DNA from: Deltaproteobacteria bacterium
GTDB lineage: Bacteria; Desulfobacterota; Binatia; UBA9968; JAJDTQ01
Direction of reading: 5' to 3'
Assembly (NCBI GenBank): GCA_028818775.1
Contig: JAPPNE010000054.1
Span: 9,136-73,135 of the forward strand
DNA: 64,000 nucleotides
Under the pieces are notes generated by a model, which was not told the DNA's origin, did no database searches, and saw only the letters and a list, made by a program, of their open reading frames with translations. Below, in pieces: positions 2-11,520 of the stretch; the stretch's first letter is position 1; each line of letters starts with the position of its first letter. Position numbers and translations under genes: made by a program.

Positions 2-2320
2 TGGCATGGTCTGGCCGTGGCACAGTCGCTGGTCAGCGAGGTTCGCGTCGCGGGCAACCTGAGGGTGGAGGAGGATGCCATCCGGTTGAGCATCCAGGCC
101 CAGCCGGGGGAACCGTTCGACGCCGAGATGGTGAACCGTGACGTCAAGGCCATCTACCGCATGGGTCTCTTCGATGACGTCAGCGCGGACTTCTCCGCCA
201 CCGGCGTTCTGACCTACACGGTCAAGGAACGCCCGTACGTGAGGGAGGTCCGGATCGCGGGCAACGACAAGGTGTCCACGGAGGACATCGAAGCGGCCCT
301 GGGGGTCCAGTTGCGCACGGCTCTGGACACCGCGCGTTTGCAGGAAGGATTGCAGCGGGTGCTGCGCCTCTACGGCGAGGCCGGCCACGTCAATACCCGG
401 GTCGACTACAACCTGACCCCGGCCGAGAACAACCAGACCATCGTGACCCTGAGCGTCTTCGAGGGCGAGACGCTGCTGATCCACAGGATTGCCTTCGAAG
501 GCAACCGCGCCTTCTCCGACGACGAGTTGAAGGACGTCATGGATACGAAGGAGCGGTGGTTCATTCCCTTCACCAGCCGCGGCCGCCTGGATCCGGACGT
601 CCTTACCAACGACACCGCGCAGTTGTCGTCGTTGTACTACGACAACGGGTTCGTGGACCACAAGATCGACGAGCCCATCGTCCTGCCGCGGGGCGAAGGC
701 CTGGAGGTCGTGATCCGCATCCAGGAAGGCGAACGCTACCGCGTCGGAGAGGTGAAGGTCGGCGGGGATATCGGCCGGACGCCGGAGCGGCTGCTGGAAC
801 GGGTCAGCCTCACCTCGGGGCAGGTTTTTCGCCGGAGCCGTCTGCTCAACGACGTGAACGCGCTGCAGGAACGCTACGCGGACCGCGGCTACGCCTTCGT
901 CGAGGTGACCCCTCGGACACGCTTCAACGTCGAAGAGCGGCTGGTGAACGTCAGCTACGTGGTCAAGCAGGGGCCGCTGGTCTACTTCGACGAGGTGAGG
1001 ATCGCCGGCAACGTCAAGACCCGGGACAAGGTGATCCGGCGGGAGCTCGAAGTGGCGGAGGAGGCACGGTTCTCCTCGGCGAGAGTCCGGGAGAGCCGCA
1101 ACGCCTTGTTGCGCACGGGCTTCTTCAAGGACGTGACCGTGTCCACGGAGAAGGCCGACCGGGATGACCGGATCAACCTGGTGGTGAACGTGGAGGAAGC
1201 GCCCACCGGTACCTTCAGCGTCGGCGCGGGCTACAGCACCGCCAGCGGGTTCTCCTTCCGAACCTCCCTGGAAGAACGCAACCTCTTCGGCACCGGACGG
1301 CGGGTGTCCGCGGACCTCACGCTGAGCAAAACCGACCAGGACATCGTCCTGGGCTTCGTGGAACCGCGCATTTTCGATACCCGCGCGGATCTCGGTTTCG
1401 ACGTTTTCCACACCACCGCGGAGTACGCCACGTGGACGAACCGGCGCAGCGGTTTCTCCACCCGGATCAGCGTTCCGTTGCGATACCTTCGCCTGCCGTA
1501 CCTCGGACGCCGCGCCGATGTCTGGCGCAGCGATGATCCGGACCTGGAGCCCGGGTTCTCCATCCTGGATCACCTTAACGGCGGCATCGGCTACACCTTT
1601 TTTCGTTCCAAGGTAACGGACGTGGACAACGACGCGCCGCTGAGTATCGAGCCGGGAGCATCCACCACGAGCGCGGTCACGCCGAGGCTTTCCTACGACA
1701 CGCGCAATCACTTCTTCTCCCCCACCGCGGGCACGCGCTCCACGCTGTCCGTCAAGCTGGCCGGGCTTGGGGGAGACAACCGCTTCATGCGCAGCGACTT
1801 CTCCATAGCCTGGTACTATCCCATTCTCGCGAATTTCGACTGGGGCAAGAGCTTTGCCCTGATGCTCGGAGGCCGGATCGGCTACGCGGACTCCTGGACG
1901 GAACGGCAATTGCCGCTGTTCGAACGCTACTTCGCCGGCGGCATCAACTCGGTGCGCGGGTACGAGTATCGTACCCTGGGTCCGCGGGAATGCCCGCGGG
2001 ACGATCCCGATTGCGACGACCCCGCGGCCGACGGCGAGGCCGTGGGCGGCAACAAGCAGCTCATCCTCAAGACCGAGCTGCACTTTCCGATCGCGAATCA
2101 ATGGGGTTTCCGGGGCTCCCTCTTCTTCGACCAGGGACAGGCGTTCGGCCCTGCCGAGAACATCCGTATCGAGGAGCTGAAGCGTTCGGTGGGGCTGGCG
2201 ATGCAGTGGCAGTCGCCCATCGGACCGGTCAGACTGAGTTGGGCTTACCCGGTGAACGCGGAGCCGACCGATCAGAAGGAGCTTCTCGGGTTCGCGTTCG
2301 GAGCGCTGGGCGGTTTTTGA
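2..2320 (+). CDS. bamA: Outer membrane protein assembly factor BamA, 5'-partial
   Basis: POTRA repeats (EVRIAGNVKTRDKVIRRE), barrel motifs GTFSVGAGYST and FAGGINSVRGYE, C-terminal Phe. The frame is open from base 2 (W-H-G-L-A-V-A-Q), so the start and signal peptide lie upstream of the window. Confidence 0.97.
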   Translation, partial: WHGLAVAQSLVSEVRVAGNLRVEEDAIRLSIQAQPGEPFDAEMVNRDVKAIYRMGLFDDVSADFSATGVLTYTVKERPYVREVRIAGNDKVSTEDIEAALGVQLRTALDTARLQEGLQRVLRLYGEAGHVNTRVDYNLTPAENNQTIVTLSVFEGETLLIHRIAFEGNRAFSDDELKDVMDTKERWFIPFTSRGRLDPDVLTNDTAQLSSLYYDNGFVDHKIDEPIVLPRGEGLEVVIRIQEGERYRVGEVKVGGDIGRTPERLLERVSLTSGQVFRRSRLLNDVNALQERYADRGYAFVEVTPRTRFNVEERLVNVSYVVKQGPLVYFDEVRIAGNVKTRDKVIRRELEVAEEARFSSARVRESRNALLRTGFFKDVTVSTEKADRDDRINLVVNVEEAPTGTFSVGAGYSTASGFSFRTSLEERNLFGTGRRVSADLTLSKTDQDIVLGFVEPRIFDTRADLGFDVFHTTAEYATWTNRRSGFSTRISVPLRYLRLPYLGRRADVWRSDDPDLEPGFSILDHLNGGIGYTFFRSKVTDVDNDAPLSIEPGASTTSAVTPRLSYDTRNHFFSPTAGTRSTLSVKLAGLGGDNRFMRSDFSIAWYYPILANFDWGKSFALMLGGRIGYADSWTERQLPLFERYFAGGINSVRGYEYRTLGPRECPRDDPDCDDPAADGEAVGGNKQLILKTELHFPIANQWGFRGSLFFDQGQAFGPAENIRIEELKRSVGLAMQWQSPIGPVRLSWAYPVNAEPTDQKELLGFAFGALGGF

Positions 2321-2346: not shown

Positions 2347-2370
2347 TGAGCTATATTCTTGTTGGAGGTT

Positions 2371-2898
2371 ATGGTGACCCGAGTCTGTGCGGTTCTCTTG
2401 TTGACGCTGCTGCTGACCCCCGCGTGGGGCCAGGAGCTCAAGGTCGGGTTCGTCAATCTACAGAGGGCCATAAGCTTGTCCGAGCGCGGCAAGAGCGCGC
2501 GCGCCCAGTTCCAGGCCTCGGTCAAGGACAAGCAGGATGCATTGCGGAAGGAGCAGCAGGCCATCGAGAAGGAGCAGCGGGACCTGCAGAAGCAAGGCGT
2601 CCTGATGAAGGAGAGCGAGCGGGCCAAGGCACAGCTCCGCTTCCAGCGGCGCGTGCGCGATTACGAGCGCGACAAGCGCGACATGCAGGAGGAATTGGCT
2701 CTCAGGGAACGCGAGATCACCGACGGTATCCTGAAGGACCTGCAAAAGATCATCGCGGAGCTGGGCAAGACCGGGAAGTTCACCATGATCCTTGAACGAA
2801 GCCAGCTTCTCTACACGGACAAGGGTACCGACGTCACCGATGACGTGATCAAGCTTTACGACGAGCGCTTCAAGAAGACGGCCGACAAGGACAGGTGA
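2371..2898 (+). CDS. skp: OmpH/Skp periplasmic chaperone
   Basis: Signal peptide, LKVGFVNLQRAI, coiled-coil body, C-terminal DVTDDVIKLY; GGAGG before ATG 2371; sits after bamA. Confidence 0.93.
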   Translation: MVTRVCAVLLLTLLLTPAWGQELKVGFVNLQRAISLSERGKSARAQFQASVKDKQDALRKEQQAIEKEQRDLQKQGVLMKESERAKAQLRFQRRVRDYERDKRDMQEELALREREITDGILKDLQKIIAELGKTGKFTMILERSQLLYTDKGTDVTDDVIKLYDERFKKTADKDR

Positions 2899-3950
2899 CC
2901 ACCTCAGGCAAATCGCTCGCGGAACTCGCCGAGCTCGTCGGCGGACGGGTGGCCGGTGACGCGGACGTGACCATCCAGAGGGTGTCTTCCATAGAGGACG
3001 CCGGCCCGGACGACATCACTTTTCTGGCCCATCCGCGCTACCGGGCGCATCTGGCCGCGTGCAACGCCGGCGCTGTCATCGTGGCCCACGATCTGCGCGC
3101 GGACGTCGCGCTCAACTTTCTTCACGTCGACGATCCCCACCGGGCGTTCGCGCAAATACACGCGTTGTTCAATCCCCCGGCCGTGCACGCGCCGGGCGTC
3201 AGCCCCTTGGCCGCCGTCGATCCGTCCGCCGTCGTGGAACCGGGCGCCAGCCTCTACCCTCAATGCTGCGTGGGAAAAGACGCCCGGATCGGCGAGAGGA
3301 CGGTGCTCATGCCTGGCGTGTCCGTCGGCGCCGGAGCGCGGCTCGGCCGTGATTGCGTGCTGCATCCCAACGTGACGGTGGCGGATGGCTGCCAGGTCGG
3401 CGACGGCGTCGTTCTTCACGCGGGCGTGGTCATCGGCAGCGACGGCTTCGGCTACGCGGGCCACGGTCCGGGGCGTCTCAAGGTGCCGCAGGCCGGGATC
3501 GTGGAGATCGGCGATCACGTCGAGATCGGCGCCAACACCGCCATCGATCGGGCCACCATCGGCAGCACCCGCATAGGGGCGGGCACGAAGATCGATAATC
3601 TCGTGCAGATAGGGCACAATGTGGTGGTCGGCGAACGGTGCCTGATCATCGCCCAGACGGGCATTGCCGGCAGCGCGGTGGTGGGTGACGACGTGGTGCT
3701 GGCCGGACAGGTGGGCGTCAAGGACCACGTGGAGATCGGCTCCCGGTCGGTGATCGGGCCCAAGAGCACCATCGTGCAATCGGTCCCGCCCGGCTCCGTG
3801 CTCTCCGGCCTGATCTCGGCCGCGCCGCACAAGGAGTGGCTCAGGGTGATACGGCTCCTGCCGAAACTGCCCGCGCTTTGGCGGCGGGTGGCCGAGATCG
3901 AGAGAGCCTTGCGCCTGACGGCCTCTACGGAGGACAAGGAGGTCCGGTAG
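2895..3950 (+). CDS. lpxD: UDP-3-O-acylglucosamine N-acyltransferase
   Basis: Hexapeptide repeats, IGSDGFGY, KIDNLVQIGHN. Confidence 0.97.
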   Translation: MTTSGKSLAELAELVGGRVAGDADVTIQRVSSIEDAGPDDITFLAHPRYRAHLAACNAGAVIVAHDLRADVALNFLHVDDPHRAFAQIHALFNPPAVHAPGVSPLAAVDPSAVVEPGASLYPQCCVGKDARIGERTVLMPGVSVGAGARLGRDCVLHPNVTVADGCQVGDGVVLHAGVVIGSDGFGYAGHGPGRLKVPQAGIVEIGDHVEIGANTAIDRATIGSTRIGAGTKIDNLVQIGHNVVVGERCLIIAQTGIAGSAVVGDDVVLAGQVGVKDHVEIGSRSVIGPKSTIVQSVPPGSVLSGLISAAPHKEWLRVIRLLPKLPALWRRVAEIERALRLTASTEDKEVR

Positions 3951-3954
3951 CGAA

Positions 3955-4398
3955 ATGATGGACGTAATCGAGATACGCAAGCTGATCCCGCATCGCTATC
4001 CGTTCCTTCTGGTGGATCGAATCGTGGAGCTCGAGCCCAACAAGCGCATCGTGGGCATCAAGAACGTCAGCATCAACGAGACCTTCTTCCAGGGCCACTT
4101 CCCGGACAAGCCCGTCATGCCGGGCGTGCTGATCTGCGAGGCCATGGCGCAGGTAGGCGCGGTCTTCGCGCGGTGCAGCGACCCATCTCCGGACAACGAC
4201 CCGTGGGACAAGGTTTTCGTCCTTACGGGTCTCGACCGGGTGAAGTTCAAGCACCTGGTGGTGCCGGGCGATCAGTTGCGCATCGAGTTGGAAATCACGC
4301 GGCGACGCAAGAACTATTGGCGCCTCGCCGGGCATGCGACGGTGGACGGACGGCGCGTGGCGGAGGCGGAATTGTCCGCCATGGAGATGCCTGCGTGA
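3955..4398 (+). CDS. fabZ: 3-hydroxyacyl-ACP dehydratase
   Basis: IPHRYPFLLVDRI, FFQGHFPDKPVMPGVLICEAMAQ. Confidence 0.97.
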   Translation: MMDVIEIRKLIPHRYPFLLVDRIVELEPNKRIVGIKNVSINETFFQGHFPDKPVMPGVLICEAMAQVGAVFARCSDPSPDNDPWDKVFVLTGLDRVKFKHLVVPGDQLRIELEITRRRKNYWRLAGHATVDGRRVAEAELSAMEMPA

Positions 4399-5231
4399 CG
4401 CCGGACGTGCCCGCGGACCGGGTCGGCCTGATCGCCGGCAGCGGCCGCTTTCCATTAATATTCGCCCGCAACGCGCGACAGGCCGGGGTACGCGTCATCG
4501 CGGTGGCTCACCACGGGGAAACGGACCCGGAGATCGAGCAGTTCGCCGCGGAGGTCACCTGGATCCGGGTGGGCCAGTTGGGGCGGATCATCCGGACCTT
4601 CCACAAGGCCGAGGTCCGTCACGCCGTCATGGCGGGCGGCATCCGCAAGGTGCGCATGTTCTCGAACTTCAGGCCCGATCCCAGAGGCTTGGCACTGTTG
4701 GCGCGGATGCGGCGCCGCGACGACGACCACCTGTTGCGCGGGGTCGCCGGGGAGCTCGAGGGCGAGGGCATCCGGGTGGTGCCTTCAACGATTTTCCTCG
4801 AACGCATCATTCCCGGAACGCCGGGCGTGTTGACCCGCACCGAGCCGAGCGAACAGCAATGGCGGGACGTGCGTCAGGGAATCCCCATGGTGAAGACGCT
4901 CGGACGCATGGGCATCGGTCAAACCCTGGTGCTGAAGGAGGGGGTCGTCTTGGCCGTCGAGGCCATCGAGGGCACGGATGCCGCCATCCGTCGCGGTGGC
5001 GACGCTGTGGAAGGCTCCATCGTGGTGGTCAAGATGAGCAAGCCGGACCAGGACCTGCGCTTCGACGTGCCCGCCATCGGCCCGGGGACCATCGAGGTCC
5101 TGCGGGAAGTCGGGGGCGGCGTGCTCGCGGTGGAGTGCGGGCGGTCGATTCTGCTGGACAAGGAGGAGTTGCTGGCGGCCGCCGACGATGCGGGCATCGC
5201 GGTAGTGGCGGCGGCTTCGGAGCCGGAATGA
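4395..5231 (+). CDS. lpxI: UDP-2,3-diacylglucosamine hydrolase LpxI
   Basis: GLIAGSGRFP, GIGQTLV, AVEAIEGTDAAIRR, QDLRFDVPAIG; GTG start overlaps the fabZ stop (GTGA 4395-4398). Confidence 0.92.
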   Translation: MTPDVPADRVGLIAGSGRFPLIFARNARQAGVRVIAVAHHGETDPEIEQFAAEVTWIRVGQLGRIIRTFHKAEVRHAVMAGGIRKVRMFSNFRPDPRGLALLARMRRRDDDHLLRGVAGELEGEGIRVVPSTIFLERIIPGTPGVLTRTEPSEQQWRDVRQGIPMVKTLGRMGIGQTLVLKEGVVLAVEAIEGTDAAIRRGGDAVEGSIVVVKMSKPDQDLRFDVPAIGPGTIEVLREVGGGVLAVECGRSILLDKEELLAAADDAGIAVVAAASEPE

Positions 5232-6160
5232 GCGAGCGGGACCCCATCGCGGTGGGCGTGATCGGCGTGGGCTACGCCGGCAGCCTCCATGCGACCAAGT
5301 ACGCGTCCTTGCCCGCGGCCGAGCTTGTGGCCGTGGCCGACATCGACGAACGGCGCGCGCAAGAGGCCGGGGCACGTTACCAGGTGCACGCGGTCACCGA
5401 TTTCCGGCGGATGCTGGAACGCGTGCGCTGCGTGAGCGTTGCCGTGCCGACGCAGCAGCACTACTCGGTCGCCCGCGCTTGCCTGGAGGCGGGAGTCGAC
5501 GTGCTCGTGGAAAAGCCCATCACTGCGACGGTGTCCGACGGTTGCGAGCTGGTGAAGGCCGCGCGGCGCCACGGACGCGTCCTTCAGGTGGGGCACCTGG
5601 AGCGCTTCAATCCGGTGGTGCGCGCACTCTCCTCGGTGATCTCGGCGCCGCGGTTCGTGGAGTGTCACCGGCTGGCGCCGTTCATTGCCCGGGGCACGGA
5701 CGTCGACGTGGTGCTGGACCTGATGATTCACGACATCGACGTGATCTCCAGCCTGGTGCACGCGCCCGTGGCCCAGATCGACGCCACCGGCGTCACCGTG
5801 CTCACGGAAAGGCCCGATATCGCCAACGCGCGCATTCGTTTCGAGGACGGATGCGTCGCCAACGTAACCGCGAGCCGGGTGTCGATGAAGCGCGAGCGCA
5901 AGATCCGCTTCTTTCAGCACGACGCGTACATATCGCTGGACTACGACGCCAAAAAGGCGCAGGTGTACCGCATGGAGGACCGGAGCCGCGGCTGGGACGG
6001 CATCTCGGGACAGACCATCGTGACCGAGAACGGCGACGCCCTCCGGGACCAGATCGAATCGTTTCTGGAGTCGGTGGCGACCCGCGGGGATCCGGTGGTG
6101 AGCGGGGAGGACGGGTTGCACGCCCTGCGGATCGCCTCCGCGATCAGCGAGCGCTTGTGA
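5228..6160 (+). CDS. Gfo/Idh/MocA NAD(P)-dependent oxidoreductase (GnnA-like)
   Basis: VGVIGVGYAG, VLVEKPI, QVGHLERFNP, DLMIHDID; ATGA overlap with lpxI; position before lpxB matches GnnA-type genes. Confidence 0.88.
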   Translation: MSERDPIAVGVIGVGYAGSLHATKYASLPAAELVAVADIDERRAQEAGARYQVHAVTDFRRMLERVRCVSVAVPTQQHYSVARACLEAGVDVLVEKPITATVSDGCELVKAARRHGRVLQVGHLERFNPVVRALSSVISAPRFVECHRLAPFIARGTDVDVVLDLMIHDIDVISSLVHAPVAQIDATGVTVLTERPDIANARIRFEDGCVANVTASRVSMKRERKIRFFQHDAYISLDYDAKKAQVYRMEDRSRGWDGISGQTIVTENGDALRDQIESFLESVATRGDPVVSGEDGLHALRIASAISERL

Positions 6161-7341
6161 TGACGGACCAGGCGTGCCCGGACGAGCGGCCGGCAGAGGT
6201 GATGCTGGTGTGCGGGGAAGCCTCGGGCGACGCCCGTGGGGCCGAGTTGGTACGGAGCCTGAGGCAGCGCAACCCGACGGTGGAGCTTTTCGGCATGGGC
6301 GGCGCCGGCCTGCGCCAGGCGGGGATGAAGGTGGTCCACGACTTCGCCAAGGTATCAGGCGTCGGGCTGTCGGAAGTGCTGGGCAGCCTGCGCCACGTCT
6401 GGCTGGCTTACCGGCTCCTGCGGCGCCTGCTGCTGCGCACGCGCCCGGCCCTGCTCATCCTCATCGACTTTCCCGAGTTCAACATGCGCCTGGCGCGCCT
6501 CGCCCGGCGCCACGGCATCACCGTGCTCTACTACATCAGTCCGCAGGTGTGGGCCTGGCGCCGCTACCGCATCCGCCAGCTCGCCGCTTGCGTGGACGCC
6601 ATGGCCGTGGTGTTCCCGTTCGAGGAGGACCTGTACAAGTCCTCGGGGGTGCGAACGGTGCACTTCGTCGGACACCCCCTGGTGGACGCCGTCCAGCCCA
6701 GCCGGGATCGCGAGACCAGCCTTCACGGGTTGGGGCTGGAAGGCGCGAAGCTCACCGTGGCGCTCATGCCCGGCAGCCGGCACAAGGAAGTGGCCTCGCT
6801 CATCGGTCCCATGCTGGAGGCGGCGCGGGGTCTGGCGCGTGAGCGCGAGGTCCAGTTCGTTCTGATACGGGCCAGCACCATCGAACCCGGCGCGTTGGAG
6901 CAGGCCGTGGCCGAAGCCCCCTTCACCGTGCGCATCGCCGACGGCGACGCCTACAACATGCTGGCGGCGGCGGACCTCGTGTGGGTGGCCTCCGGGACCG
7001 CGACCCTGGAGGCGGGCCTGCTCAGGAAGCCCATGGTCATCACCTACCGTCTGTCGCCGCTGAGCTATTGGCTCGGGCGTCTGCTCATTCGGGTGGAGCA
7101 TATCGGCATGGTGAACATCATCGCGGGCGAACGGGTGGTGCCCGAGTTGATCCAGAGCGAGGTCACGGCCGAGAGGATTCTGGCCGAAACACGGCGTCTG
7201 CTCCGGCCCGAGGTTCACCGGGCGGTGGTGGCGAAGCTCGAGGCGGTGCGCCGGCGCCTGGGTCCTCCGGGTGCTCCCGGACGGGTCGCGGACATGGCCA
7301 TGCGGTTGCTGGCACGCGAGGGCACGGGAGCGCCGTCATGA
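6160..7341 (+). CDS. lpxB: Lipid-A-disaccharide synthase
   Basis: CGEASGD, IDFPEFN, YISPQVWAWR, FVGHPL, MPGSR, SGTATLE. Confidence 0.96.
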   Translation: MTDQACPDERPAEVMLVCGEASGDARGAELVRSLRQRNPTVELFGMGGAGLRQAGMKVVHDFAKVSGVGLSEVLGSLRHVWLAYRLLRRLLLRTRPALLILIDFPEFNMRLARLARRHGITVLYYISPQVWAWRRYRIRQLAACVDAMAVVFPFEEDLYKSSGVRTVHFVGHPLVDAVQPSRDRETSLHGLGLEGAKLTVALMPGSRHKEVASLIGPMLEAARGLAREREVQFVLIRASTIEPGALEQAVAEAPFTVRIADGDAYNMLAAADLVWVASGTATLEAGLLRKPMVITYRLSPLSYWLGRLLIRVEHIGMVNIIAGERVVPELIQSEVTAERILAETRRLLRPEVHRAVVAKLEAVRRRLGPPGAPGRVADMAMRLLAREGTGAPS

Positions 7342-9089
7342 CACCCTACCGGCGTTTGCTCGGATACCTGCGGCCTTACTCGTGGCCGCACTTCTGCGCC
7401 GCGATCGCGTGCATGCTGCTGTTCAGCGCATCCACGGCCGCGCTCCCCTTCGTCGTGCGGGACATGGTGGACCGGATGTTCGTCAGCAAGGACCCCGGGA
7501 TGCTGATCTACATTCCCCTCATGGTGGTGCTGGTCTTCGCTGTTCGCGGCGCGTCCAACTTCGGCCAGATCTACCTGATGGACTACGTCGGCCATCGGAT
7601 CATTCGCGACCTGCGTTCCGCGCTGTGCGAGAAGCTCCAATGGCTCTCGCTGGCCTATATCCATCGCAATCCAACGGGCACGCTTCTCTCCCGTGTCACC
7701 AGCGATGTGGGTTTGGTTCGGGTCGCGCTCACCAGCGCCGTCGCATCGCTGGCGCGCAACACGACCTCCGTGACCGCGCTGACCCTGGTGGCCTTCTACA
7801 TGGACTGGGTGCTCGCGTCCATCGCCTTCGTGGCCTTTCCCGGCGCCGTCCTCCCCGTGCGGCGGCTCACGAGGCGTGTCCGCACGGCCACCCGGCAAAG
7901 CCAGGCCAGCACCGGAACCCTTGCCGCGATCCTCCAGGAGAGCCTCCAGGGGAGCCCCATCGTGAAGGCCTTCGGCATGGAGCGATACGAGCTGGAGCGC
8001 TTCAACCGCGAGAACCGGGAGGTCCTGCGCCACAGCATGAAGGCGAGTCGCGCCCGCGCCATCATTCCCTCGGTCATGGAAGTGCTGGCGGCCATCGGCA
8101 TCGCCGGCGTGCTGTGGTACGGGGGCGCCTCGGTCATGGCCGGCGGGCGCACCGCCGGCGAATTCTTCGCCTTCATCACCGCCATGCTGCTGGTCTACGA
8201 ACCCTTCAAGCACCTGAGCCGCACGCTGCCGGAGATCCATCAGGGCATTGCCGGGGGCGAGCGGATCTTCGACGTGCTGGACGCGCCGCTGGACATCGCG
8301 GACGATCCGGACGCGGTTCCCGCCGAACCGTTTGCCGATCGCATCTCGTTCCGGCAAGTGAGCTTTGGGTATCGCGAGGGGCCCGTCCTCAAGGGCATCG
8401 ACCTGGAGATACGGCGCGGCGAGACGGTGGCTCTGGTGGGCACAAGCGGCGCGGGCAAGACGACGCTCTCGGCCTTGCTGCCGCGTTTCTACGACGTCAC
8501 CTCGGGCGGCATCGCCCTCGACGGAACGGACGTGCGCAAGCTCACCCTCGCGTCGCTCCGGCGCCAGATCGCCATCGTCACCCAGCATACCTTCCTGTTC
8601 AATGACAGCGTGCGCAACAACATCTCCTACGGCGATCCCTCCAAGGACATGGAAGAGGTGGTCCGCGCCGCCAAGGCGGCTCATGCCCACGACTTCATCA
8701 TGGAGTTGCCCATGGGGTACGATACCGTCATCGGAGAGTTGGGAATGAAGCTGTCCGGAGGACAGCGGCAGCGCATCGCCATCGCCCGGGCGGTGCTCAA
8801 GAACGCGCCGATCCTGATCCTCGACGAAGCCACTTCCGCGTTGGACTCCGAGTCGGAGCGGCTCGTGCAGGATGCCCTCGACGCGCTCATGGAGAACCGC
8901 ACCAGCCTCGTGATCGCCCACCGCCTGTCGACCATTCGCAACGCCACTCGCATCGTGGTCCTCGCCAAGGGCGCCGTCGTGGAGGAGGGCACCCACAAGG
9001 ACCTGCTGGCCCGACGGAAGGAATACAGCCGCCTCTATCATTTGCAGGCCATGGAAGGCAGTGCGACGGAAAGGAAGTACCTGCACTGA
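7338..9089 (+). CDS. msbA: Lipid A export ABC transporter (TMD+NBD)
   Basis: Six-TM N-terminal half, Walker A GTSGAGKT, signature LSGGQRQR, Walker B ILILDEATSALD; lipid A operon context. Confidence 0.9.
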   Translation: MTPYRRLLGYLRPYSWPHFCAAIACMLLFSASTAALPFVVRDMVDRMFVSKDPGMLIYIPLMVVLVFAVRGASNFGQIYLMDYVGHRIIRDLRSALCEKLQWLSLAYIHRNPTGTLLSRVTSDVGLVRVALTSAVASLARNTTSVTALTLVAFYMDWVLASIAFVAFPGAVLPVRRLTRRVRTATRQSQASTGTLAAILQESLQGSPIVKAFGMERYELERFNRENREVLRHSMKASRARAIIPSVMEVLAAIGIAGVLWYGGASVMAGGRTAGEFFAFITAMLLVYEPFKHLSRTLPEIHQGIAGGERIFDVLDAPLDIADDPDAVPAEPFADRISFRQVSFGYREGPVLKGIDLEIRRGETVALVGTSGAGKTTLSALLPRFYDVTSGGIALDGTDVRKLTLASLRRQIAIVTQHTFLFNDSVRNNISYGDPSKDMEEVVRAAKAAHAHDFIMELPMGYDTVIGELGMKLSGGQRQRIAIARAVLKNAPILILDEATSALDSESERLVQDALDALMENRTSLVIAHRLSTIRNATRIVVLAKGAVVEEGTHKDLLARRKEYSRLYHLQAMEGSATERKYLH

Positions 9090-9140: not shown

Positions 9141-10436
9141 GTGTTGAGTCTCTACAATACGGTGTGGCACGCAGGCCTCATGCTCGCGCTCTTGGCGTGG
9201 CCCCTGCTGTTGATCCTCCCGCGGCGTCCGTACCGGGGCCTGCGCGAGCGTTTCGCCGCCTATCCGGGTGCGCTGCGCGACTCACTCGCCGGTTCCCGCC
9301 CCATCTGGGTTCATGCCGCTTCCGTGGGCGAGGTACGTTCAGCCGCCGCGCTGCTTCGGCGCATCAAGGCGCGCTGGCCGGAACGCAAGCTGCTGCTCTC
9401 CACGGTCACCGCCACCGGCCGTCAGACCGGATGGGAAAACCTTCCCCACGTGGACGCCGTCACCTACCTGCCGCTGGACCTGCCGTGGCTGGTCTCGCGC
9501 AGCCTTCGGTGCCTCCGTCCGGAGGTGATCATCGTGCTGGAAACGGAGATCTGGCCCAACTTCATCCACGCGGCGCACCGGCAGCGCATCCCGCTGGTGG
9601 TGCTCAGCGGCCGTCTGTCGCCGCGCGGCGCGGCCCTCTTCAAACGGTTCCAGGGACTCTTCCGCCCCGCGCTGGAGCGGGTGTCCGCCTTCGGCATGCA
9701 GGACGACGAGAATGCCGCGCGCCTGCTGGATCTGGGAGTGGACCCTGCCAGGGTGACGGTTACCGGCTCCCTTAAGCACGCGCCGGACGCGGCGGCGGAG
9801 GAGCCGCCCGCGGACCTGTCAGGCTTCGGCCCGGGCCCCGTGGTGGTGGCGGGCAGCACGCACCGGGGAGAGGAAGAGGTGCTGCTGGATGTCCTGCCTG
9901 GCTTGCGCCGCCGTTTCCCGGGCCTGTTGATGGTCCTCGCTCCGAGGCATCCCGAGCGGTTCGCCGAGGTGGAACGCCTGCTGCGGCAACGCGAGCTGCG
10001 TTACCAGAAGCGGACTGAATTCACCGGCGTCGGGTCCGAGGAGGTCGGCGTGCTGCTGCTGGATACGCTGGGCGAGCTGCCGCGCGTGTACGGCCGCGCG
10101 GACGTCGCGTTCGTGGGCGGCACCCTGGTCCCGGCGGGAGGACACAATCTCCTGGAACCGGCGCGTTGCGCCAAACCGGTGCTGTTCGGTCCCCATCACG
10201 CCAACGTCGCCGGCATCGCCCGCGCTCTCCTGGAAGGAGGCGGCGGCGTCGAGGTGCGCGGCCCCGAGGACCTCCAGGCGGAGATCAGCGGCCTGTTGGA
10301 AGATCCCGGTCGGGCGGCGGCGGTGGGCCGCGCCGCCGCCCGGGCCGCGGCGGCGGACGCGGACGTCCTGCCGCGGAGCCTGAAACTGGTGTGCCGCCAA
10401 ATTCGGCACGCCGCCTCCCGGGGTGCCCTTGGCTAG
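9141..10436 (+). CDS. waaA: Kdo transferase
   Basis: IWVHAASVGE, ETEIWPN, APRHPERF, LDTLGEL, GGHNLLEPA. Confidence 0.95.
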   Translation: MLSLYNTVWHAGLMLALLAWPLLLILPRRPYRGLRERFAAYPGALRDSLAGSRPIWVHAASVGEVRSAAALLRRIKARWPERKLLLSTVTATGRQTGWENLPHVDAVTYLPLDLPWLVSRSLRCLRPEVIIVLETEIWPNFIHAAHRQRIPLVVLSGRLSPRGAALFKRFQGLFRPALERVSAFGMQDDENAARLLDLGVDPARVTVTGSLKHAPDAAAEEPPADLSGFGPGPVVVAGSTHRGEEEVLLDVLPGLRRRFPGLLMVLAPRHPERFAEVERLLRQRELRYQKRTEFTGVGSEEVGVLLLDTLGELPRVYGRADVAFVGGTLVPAGGHNLLEPARCAKPVLFGPHHANVAGIARALLEGGGGVEVRGPEDLQAEISGLLEDPGRAAAVGRAAARAAAADADVLPRSLKLVCRQIRHAASRGALG

Positions 10437-11520
10437 TGGGCCGGCACGATGGGTGCGCGACGCCTGGCAAGGGCGCGGCGCGGCGGCCCGCATCCTGTGG
10501 CTGCTGCTGTGGCCGTGGAGCCTGGTCTACCGTGCCGTGATTGGGCTGCGAAACCTGCTGTACGACGTCGGGGTGCTGCGTTCCCGGAGACTCCCGGTTC
10601 CGGTGGTGTGCGTGGGCAACCTCACCGTGGGCGGCACCGGCAAGACCCCCACGGTCCTGTGGCTGTCCCAGGCCCTGCGGCAGCGCGGCCTCGGGACGAC
10701 GATCCTGACCCGAGGTTACGGCGGCGCCGGCACGGCCGCCGTGATCGAGCCCGAGGATGCCGGGAAATGGCTTGACGAGGCCGCCGGCAGGCTTCTGGTC
10801 TACGGCGACGAACCGGCCATGATGAGCGCCCTGTACGGCCAGAGGGTGGGTGTGGGCGCGGACCGCTACCGTGTCGGCCTGGAGTCGGGCCGGGACCCGC
10901 TGAAAGCGCACCTCTTCGTGCTGGACGATGGATTCCAGCACCGGCGGCTCGAGCGGGACCTCGACATCGTCCTCGTGGGGTCCGACTGCGAGGGGTCGCT
11001 CCTGCCGGCGGGGCCGTTTCGAGAGCCGGTCCGGGCGTTGCGCCGCGCCCGTGTCGTCGTGGTGACCGGGGCGCACGACCGCTGGCGGAAACGGCTCGAG
11101 CGCCGTTTCGACTCTTCCAGGGTCTTCTTTGGAAACCGGCGGCCGCGCGCCGTGCTCATGCGCACCGAGAGCGGCCACCGGGAGCTGACGCTGGCCGCTC
11201 TCGCCGGCGCCCGGGTCCTGGCGGTGGCCGCGATAGGCGACCCGGCGCCTTTCTACGCCATGCTCCGCGAGTGCGAGGCGGTCGTGGTGGACACGCTGGA
11301 GTATCCCGATCACCACACGTACACGGAAGGAGACTGGCGCGAGATCAACCGCCGCCCGGCGGAGAAGATCGTCACGACCGAGAAGGACTACGTCAAGTTG
11401 GCGCGGTTCCCCTTTTCCACCGGACGTTTGCTGGCCCTGAGAATCGAAATGGTCGTGGACCGGCCGGAGGAATTGCTGGATTACGTCGTCGAGGCGGTGC
11501 GTCCGGCGGCGCATGAATGA
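10423..11520 (+). CDS. lpxK: Tetraacyldisaccharide 4'-kinase
   Basis: VGNLTVGGTGKTP, TRGYGG, GDEP, LDDGFQH, TTEKDYVK. Exact start uncertain. Confidence 0.95.
   Translation: MPLASGPARWVRDAWQGRGAAARILWLLLWPWSLVYRAVIGLRNLLYDVGVLRSRRLPVPVVCVGNLTVGGTGKTPTVLWLSQALRQRGLGTTILTRGYGGAGTAAVIEPEDAGKWLDEAAGRLLVYGDEPAMMSALYGQRVGVGADRYRVGLESGRDPLKAHLFVLDDGFQHRRLERDLDIVLVGSDCEGSLLPAGPFREPVRALRRARVVVVTGAHDRWRKRLERRFDSSRVFFGNRRPRAVLMRTESGHRELTLAALAGARVLAVAAIGDPAPFYAMLRECEAVVVDTLEYPDHHTYTEGDWREINRRPAEKIVTTEKDYVKLARFPFSTGRLLALRIEMVVDRPEELLDYVVEAVRPAAHE

Follow-up and report, generated by a model that had tools for sequence, protein, structure and literature searches.

In Escherichia coli K-12 the lipid A cluster lpxD-fabZ-lpxA-lpxB (NC_000913.3, b0179-b0182) continues from bamA and skp, with lpxA directly after fabZ. 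Some genomes encode two LpxA proteins. Capnocytophaga canimorsus has lpxA and lpxA' along with gnnA and gnnB, and the two copies, which lie in one operon and are both kept, have been linked to a hybrid GlcN3N-GlcN backbone carrying different acyl chains (PMC3342949). Likewise, in Segatella copri and other Bacteroidota there are two LpxA homologues, about 45% identical and with their catalytic residues kept, and this pair has been proposed to broaden lipid A acyl diversity (PMC12643348). A further point of reference is the GnnA of Acidithiobacillus ferrooxidans (7BVJ/7BVK), encoded in a lipid A operon and accompanied by an adjacent gnnB.

The window analysed here, a stretch of 64,000 nucleotides from contig JAPPNE010000054.1, belongs to a bacterium of the class Binatia, from a reportedly sponge-associated genus; in the literature searched we found no paper on lipid A in Binatia. 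Its genome, coded G000, is a draft of 189 contigs with a completeness of 97.5%. Families were assigned to the window's genes by NCBIfam and Pfam, with most matches above curated cut-offs and all of them full length (Table 1), which bears out the statement of the first-pass annotation that lpxD, lpxI, lpxB, msbA, waaA and lpxK are intact. The cluster resembles that of E. coli K-12 in its bamA-skp-lpxD-fabZ order followed by later lipid A genes, but it has LpxI instead of LpxH, carries a gnnA-like gene between lpxI and lpxB, and continues with msbA, waaA and lpxK. It differs further in that the slot directly after fabZ, filled by lpxA in both E. coli and relatives of G000, is empty. We retrieved the lpxI locus from 30 relatives for comparison of gene order, and 19 of these loci read lpxD-fabZ-lpxA-lpxI and then gfo, in keeping with the first-pass statement that the operon usually runs fabZ-lpxA-lpxI. 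In the window this canonical order is broken, fabZ and lpxI overlapping by 4 bases: fabZ ends in GCG TGA, and the GTG at 4395-4397 starts the lpxI frame. The GTGA overlap reported at first pass is thus seen directly in the sequence, as is the lack of any lpxA remnant, since a 4-base overlap leaves no space and there is neither an ORF nor a spacer at the junction. The fabZ-lpxI slot is contiguous in G000, and a sister genome (G017) is concordant.

Table 1. Genes and features of the lipid A cluster in the window (positions of the 64,000-nucleotide stretch)
Feature	Position	Strand	Basis
bamA	17..2320	+	TIGR03303 635.9 bits, cut-off 297; heads the envelope cluster
skp-like chaperone gene	2359..2898	+	weak NF008047 match, E 3.5e-7; position as expected
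lpxD	2895..3950	+	TIGR01853 344 bits, cut-off 242.5
fabZ	3955..4398	+	TIGR01750 187.5 bits, cut-off 155
GTGA overlap of fabZ stop and lpxI start	4395..4398	+	sequence; alignment with sisters G001, G015 and G021
lpxI	4395..5231	+	Pfam LpxI_N and LpxI_C full length; NF047836 143 bits; alternative start GTG 4407
gnnA-like Gfo/Idh/MocA dehydrogenase gene	5228..6160	+	7BVJ 183.8 bits; NF040723 (UDP-GlcNAc 3-dehydrogenase) 209 bits, below cut-off
lpxB	6157..7341	+	TIGR00215 277.5 bits, cut-off 190
msbA	7338..9089	+	TIGR02203 594.7 bits, just under cut-off 602; full length
waaA (Kdo transferase)	9141..10436	+	NF004388 335 bits; Pfam Glycos_transf_N (PF04413)
lpxK	10423..11520	+	TIGR00682 201.7 bits, cut-off 92

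The first-pass annotation had asked whether lpxA and lpxC lie elsewhere in this genome and its relatives. We searched all 189 contigs with the TIGR01852 profile, the draft status of the assembly making a second lpxA in a gap conceivable, and recovered one LpxA over the cut-off, on the minus strand of contig C23 (34583-35341; 299.6-299.9 bits against a cut-off of 231). Its product also passes the NF003657 model (308.2 bits against 226, positions 1-254 of 254), and its Pfam domains, Hexapep (78 bits) and Acetyltransf_11 (76 bits, positions 1-82 of 82), correspond to a left-handed beta-helix of hexapeptide repeats and a C-terminal helical domain. We refer to this stand-alone type as LpxA2 and to the operonic type, encoded between fabZ and lpxI, as LpxA1. 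The only other notable match to the profile in G000 is LpxD, at a weak 71-78 bits; two remaining matches have E values of about 1e-5, and this profile search returned no further LpxA- or LpxD-like gene. A gene for LpxC is present on contig C41 (246.7-248 bits). When 41 genomes of the same order, 25 of them from the window's genus, were queried with the LpxA2 protein, every one yielded an LpxA2-type gene (identity 60-98%). Judged by gene content, the Raetz pathway of G000 is complete, with LpxA2 on C23, LpxC on C41, and LpxD, LpxI, LpxB, LpxK, WaaA and MsbA in the window. The intact lpxA on C23 refutes the reading of a pathway running without LpxA, on the very terms in which the first-pass annotation had put it. 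Taking the lines of evidence below together, we propose that the redundant operonic lpxA1 has very probably been deleted, that the stand-alone LpxA2 would serve the pathway, and that the spare copy has been lost repeatedly in the genus.

The lpxC gene has a layout of its own. It lies on the minus strand (G000:C41:33001-34347, equivalent to L072:7999-9348) and its product carries a response-regulator receiver domain fused at the N-terminus, with the receiver at residues 9-147 and LpxC at residues 160-430 (246.7 bits). It directly follows a gene for a 759-aa sensor histidine kinase (L072:9390-11669). The receiver-LpxC fusion is full length in all 41 genomes of the order and stop-free in 39 of these. 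In the relative G016 the end of one contig gives an additional, partial match to LpxC (G016:C28:3-623, 42% identity).

We then considered copy number across the class, using an evenly drawn sample of 81 Binatia genomes. LpxA is found over the cut-off in 80, as two copies in 62 and as one in 18. Operonic and stand-alone genes were told apart class-wide by adjacency to gnnA (within about 1 kb); sorting by identity to LpxA1 was tried and dropped, as the ranges overlap (43-47%) in family f10. In 13 of the 18 single-copy genomes the only lpxA is no more than about 1 kb away from the gnnA-like gene, which corresponds to the operon slot, and the other five, comprising G000, G023 and three genomes merely 74-79% complete, have the stand-alone type only. 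The retention of different copies by different lineages suggests that either may be enough for viability. Binatia as a class carry two deeply diverged LpxA paralogues, of which lineages keep one, the other, or both, and they are a further example of the already known two-LpxA genomes, with recurrent and reciprocal paralogue loss as the added feature. Like Capnocytophaga, Binatia combine two lpxA genes and a GnnA homologue in one genome (PMC3342949), but one lpxA is operonic and the other stand-alone, and one or the other is often lost. The Binatia pair, from a different phylum, is about 40% identical, against about 45% for that of Segatella copri, and recurrent, reciprocal loss has not been reported for the Bacteroidota pair (PMC12643348). 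A separate observation concerns one class relative, G105, which is 94% complete and has no LpxA at E<=1e-40.

Within the order sample both types co-occur in 30 of the 41 genomes, and the 11 with LpxA2 only all come from the window's genus. Apart from G000 and G017, fabZ and lpxI are separated by 28 to 270 bp in the lpxA1-less genomes, and seven of these nine spacers hold lpxA1 remnants that differ from one another. The spacer of G022 preserves both ends of lpxA1, about 110 bases on the 5' side and about 60 on the 3' side; those of G023 and G005 have 3' pieces; those of G007, G019 and G024 have the last codons only; and in G020 the lpxA1 start is retained. In G008 and G018 no piece of lpxA1 could be made out in the spacer. 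A maximum-likelihood tree of the flanking DNA, which covers three neighbouring genes (lpxI and gfo in full, lpxB at its 5' end) rather than whole genomes, requires at least five changes of lpxA1 presence or absence and nests G000 and G017 among lpxA1-retaining sisters. Forcing all 11 lpxA1-less genomes into one clade is rejected (delta lnL 1942, AU p 1.25e-5). This, together with the differing end points and remnants, establishes that the losses are independent: several separate deletions struck the same gene.

To compare the active sites we aligned 30 LpxA2 sequences to E. coli LpxA, whose residue numbers are used here. LpxA2 retains His122, the catalytic base His125, His160 and Gln161, all invariant in the 30 sequences, plus Gln73, Asp74, Asn198 and Arg204. 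It departs from the E. coli type at Lys76 (Ser or Ala), Asp126 (Asn), His144 (Tyr in 27 of the 30), Glu200 (Val) and Arg205 (Ala), whereas LpxA1 is E. coli-like at every one of these positions. Many of the nearest database clusters, which represent natural LpxA proteins, show this pattern too, and we therefore read it as the mark of a subfamily and not as a defect. LpxA2 is predicted to transfer an R-3-hydroxyacyl chain from ACP to the 3-position of UDP-GlcNAc or UDP-GlcNAc3N, although sequence does not prove activity or substrate.

Which of the two substrates might be used bears on the gnnA-like gene of the window. Among solved structures this gene matches the characterised GnnA of A. ferrooxidans specifically, the next match reaching just 65.5 bits; the likeness extends over nearly the full length, and the lipid A operon context is shared. 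A difference is that no gnnB adjoins the window gene, the sole DegT gene of G000 being on another contig. That gene, encoding the genome's single DegT/DnrJ/EryC1 aminotransferase (C70:24373-25425, minus strand, equivalent to L071:8353-9489; PF01041 375 bits), adjoins a FadD11-like acyl-CoA ligase gene and efp, reaches the cut-off of no named NCBIfam model, and has a conserved counterpart in 39 of the 41 relatives; where genomes of the genus are complete, 40-60 kb separate it from the lipid A operon. We consider it a possible GnnB candidate. Across the class a gnnA-like gene is present in 78 of the 81 genomes, including all 13 with operonic lpxA only as well as genomes with the stand-alone gene only, and this breadth suggests that GlcN3N-containing lipid A may be a class-wide trait.

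The alternative that survives best is that LpxA1 and LpxA2 have become specialists, one using UDP-GlcNAc and the other UDP-GlcNAc3N, or each using acyl chains of a different length, and that the LpxA1 losses were adaptive and not neutral. The Leptospira interrogans LpxA (3HSQ) is selective for UDP-GlcNAc3N. Among solved structures it matches LpxA2 best (221 bits), and at 188 bits it is the lowest of the 17 matches listed for LpxA1; like LpxA2 it has a residue other than Lys at 76, Val200 and Ala205. The presence of a GnnA homologue within the operon, the recurrence of lpxA1 loss, and the precedent of C. canimorsus, where two lpxA genes and gnnA/gnnB accompany a hybrid GlcN3N-GlcN backbone (PMC3342949), point the same way. 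However, Burkholderia LpxA matches LpxA2 almost equally well (219 bits), and since the likeness to Leptospira barely exceeds it we draw no substrate inference from it; moreover, the Leptospira enzyme has Asp126 and His144 where LpxA2 has Asn and Tyr. Val200/Ala205 was rejected as a marker of UDP-GlcNAc3N use, as 142 of the 143 nearest cluster representatives are without Glu200 and the residues shared with Leptospira are not diagnostic. The idea that gnnA tracks LpxA2 in phylogenetic profile was likewise rejected: gnnA is nearly universal, occurs with either single copy, and tracks neither paralogue. Furthermore, reciprocal loss suggests that the copies are interchangeable. On balance we regard specialisation of the two enzymes as unlikely. 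We attach a similarly low probability to its structural corollary, in which two-copy Binatia would make mixed or hybrid lipid A and the repeated, independent lpxA1 deletions would be adaptive changes towards a uniform lipid A, for instance one with all amide-linked GlcN3N; were it true, the losses would amount to a natural experiment in endotoxin remodelling through paralogue loss. More generally, if the specificities of LpxA1 and LpxA2 differ, lpxA1 losses would alter lipid A structure.

Far less probable still is that the C23 gene does not work and that LpxD or another hexapeptide acyltransferase carries out the first acylation, as the first-pass annotation had suggested with LpxD as its example. 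The non-canonical residues of LpxA2 at positions 76, 126, 144, 200 and 205 and the weak match of LpxD to the LpxA model could be taken to favour such a substitution, but LpxA2 is full length, scores over the cut-offs of two LpxA equivalog models, retains His125 together with most of the residues that bind ligand, and occurs in every one of the order's 41 genomes; its residue pattern is also seen in many of its nearest clusters. The LpxD of this genome is ordinary, and the profile search of G000 offers no other candidate. Furthermore, 11 genomes with otherwise complete pathways have LpxA2 as their sole lpxA. Another enzyme is consequently unnecessary, and we infer that LpxA2 would be catalytically sufficient by itself.

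Returning to the deletion of lpxA1 as the preferred reading, we next weighed where the C23 gene came from. Had the operonic lpxA simply been excised and re-inserted on C23, an intact copy elsewhere in G000 is what one would find, and it is found. Yet the operonic LpxA1 proteins of the relatives (from the 19 loci among 30) are only 38-43% identical to the C23 protein, although FabZ, LpxI and Gfo match the window's proteins at 85-98% identity in the nearest sisters. A C23-type gene occupies this locus in sisters that retain an operonic copy as well, and the neighbours of lpxA2, a CinA-like gene and two ORFs of 242 and 341 aa, are constant throughout the 25 genomes of the genus, whether lpxA1 is there or not; beyond the genus the neighbours are not conserved, and none of them has a Pfam or NCBIfam annotation that relates to lipid A. 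This constancy implies that the gene did not move. Moreover, LpxA1 and LpxA2 each form one group, in different halves of a tree that also includes E. coli LpxA and 143 nearest-cluster representatives. We therefore hold relocation to be scarcely credible: LpxA1 and LpxA2 are old paralogues, of which G000 lost the former and kept the latter. The first-pass annotation had left open whether lpxA was moved or lost; loss stands, the operonic lpxA1 having been deleted, while the move does not, as the C23 gene is a diverged paralogue at its own conserved locus. An attempt to place the nearest relatives of LpxA2 outside Binatia through cluster names was uninformative, these being mostly metagenome proteins with one Planctomycetota MAG. 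In one relative, G036, the LpxA1-type copy (G036:C1:99101-99874) and lpxI are on different contigs.

The deletion itself can be read from an alignment of G000 and G017, a separate sister genome at 98% identity, with G001, G015 and G021. It shows a single gap of 810-819 bases over exactly lpxA1 and its leader, beginning right after the fabZ TGA and ending within the first lpxI codons, and the junction in G017 is base-for-base the same as in G000. A mis-join at 4395 that dropped lpxA from the assembly, the artefact allowed for at first pass and one to which a fragmented draft of 189 contigs might be prone, is ruled out for all practical purposes by the identical junction in the separate G017, by the nine other lpxA1-less genomes, of which three (G022, G023 and G024) consist of a single contig and seven have remnants, and by a junction without any repeat able to cause collapse. 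In G001 the bases GTGACC occur at both the fabZ stop and the lpxI start, and in G021 GCGG stands on both sides; as the sisters vary in these few junction bases, the exact end points of the deletion cannot be fixed. Deletion between such short direct repeats would yield exactly the observed GTGA overlap, and a microhomology-mediated event is thus a plausible mechanism. Based on these observations we posit that the Binatia ancestor would have had two LpxA paralogues, LpxA1 in the operon between fabZ and lpxI and LpxA2 stand-alone elsewhere, and that in the lineage of G000 and G017 an 810-819-bp deletion, probably between GTGAC-type short direct repeats, took out lpxA1 and its leader. This would have left lpxI translationally coupled to fabZ via the GTGA overlap, with a GGAG 8 nt upstream; LpxA2 would now perform the first lipid A step, and the same spare copy would have been lost repeatedly across the genus. 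The case of G000 is, in short, an ordinary loss of a redundant paralogue by a tidy deletion that keeps the operon coupling.

The start of lpxI is itself ambiguous. The GTG at 4395, which lies on the fabZ stop and has the GGAG upstream, competes with an in-frame GTG at 4407 that corresponds to the ATG of M-P-A-D-R-V in relatives; LpxI_N homology begins at residue 9.

These results remove the apparent anomaly of a Gram-negative-type pathway without its first enzyme, and the lesson is that gaps in lipid A operons need a whole-genome check before non-orthologous replacement is proposed. They also make Binatia a ready natural set of one- and two-copy genomes for asking what the second LpxA does, a question already raised for Bacteroidota.

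Another of the emptied lpxA slots has an occupant. In G008 it contains a 189-bp insert (L021:2332-2520, on G008:C138) that resembles a miniature transposable element, its ends being perfect 27-nt terminal inverted repeats, TGTCCTGTCTCACCAATAGCGTTATGA and its reverse complement. In G018, a close relative of G008, the spacer is just 28 bp.
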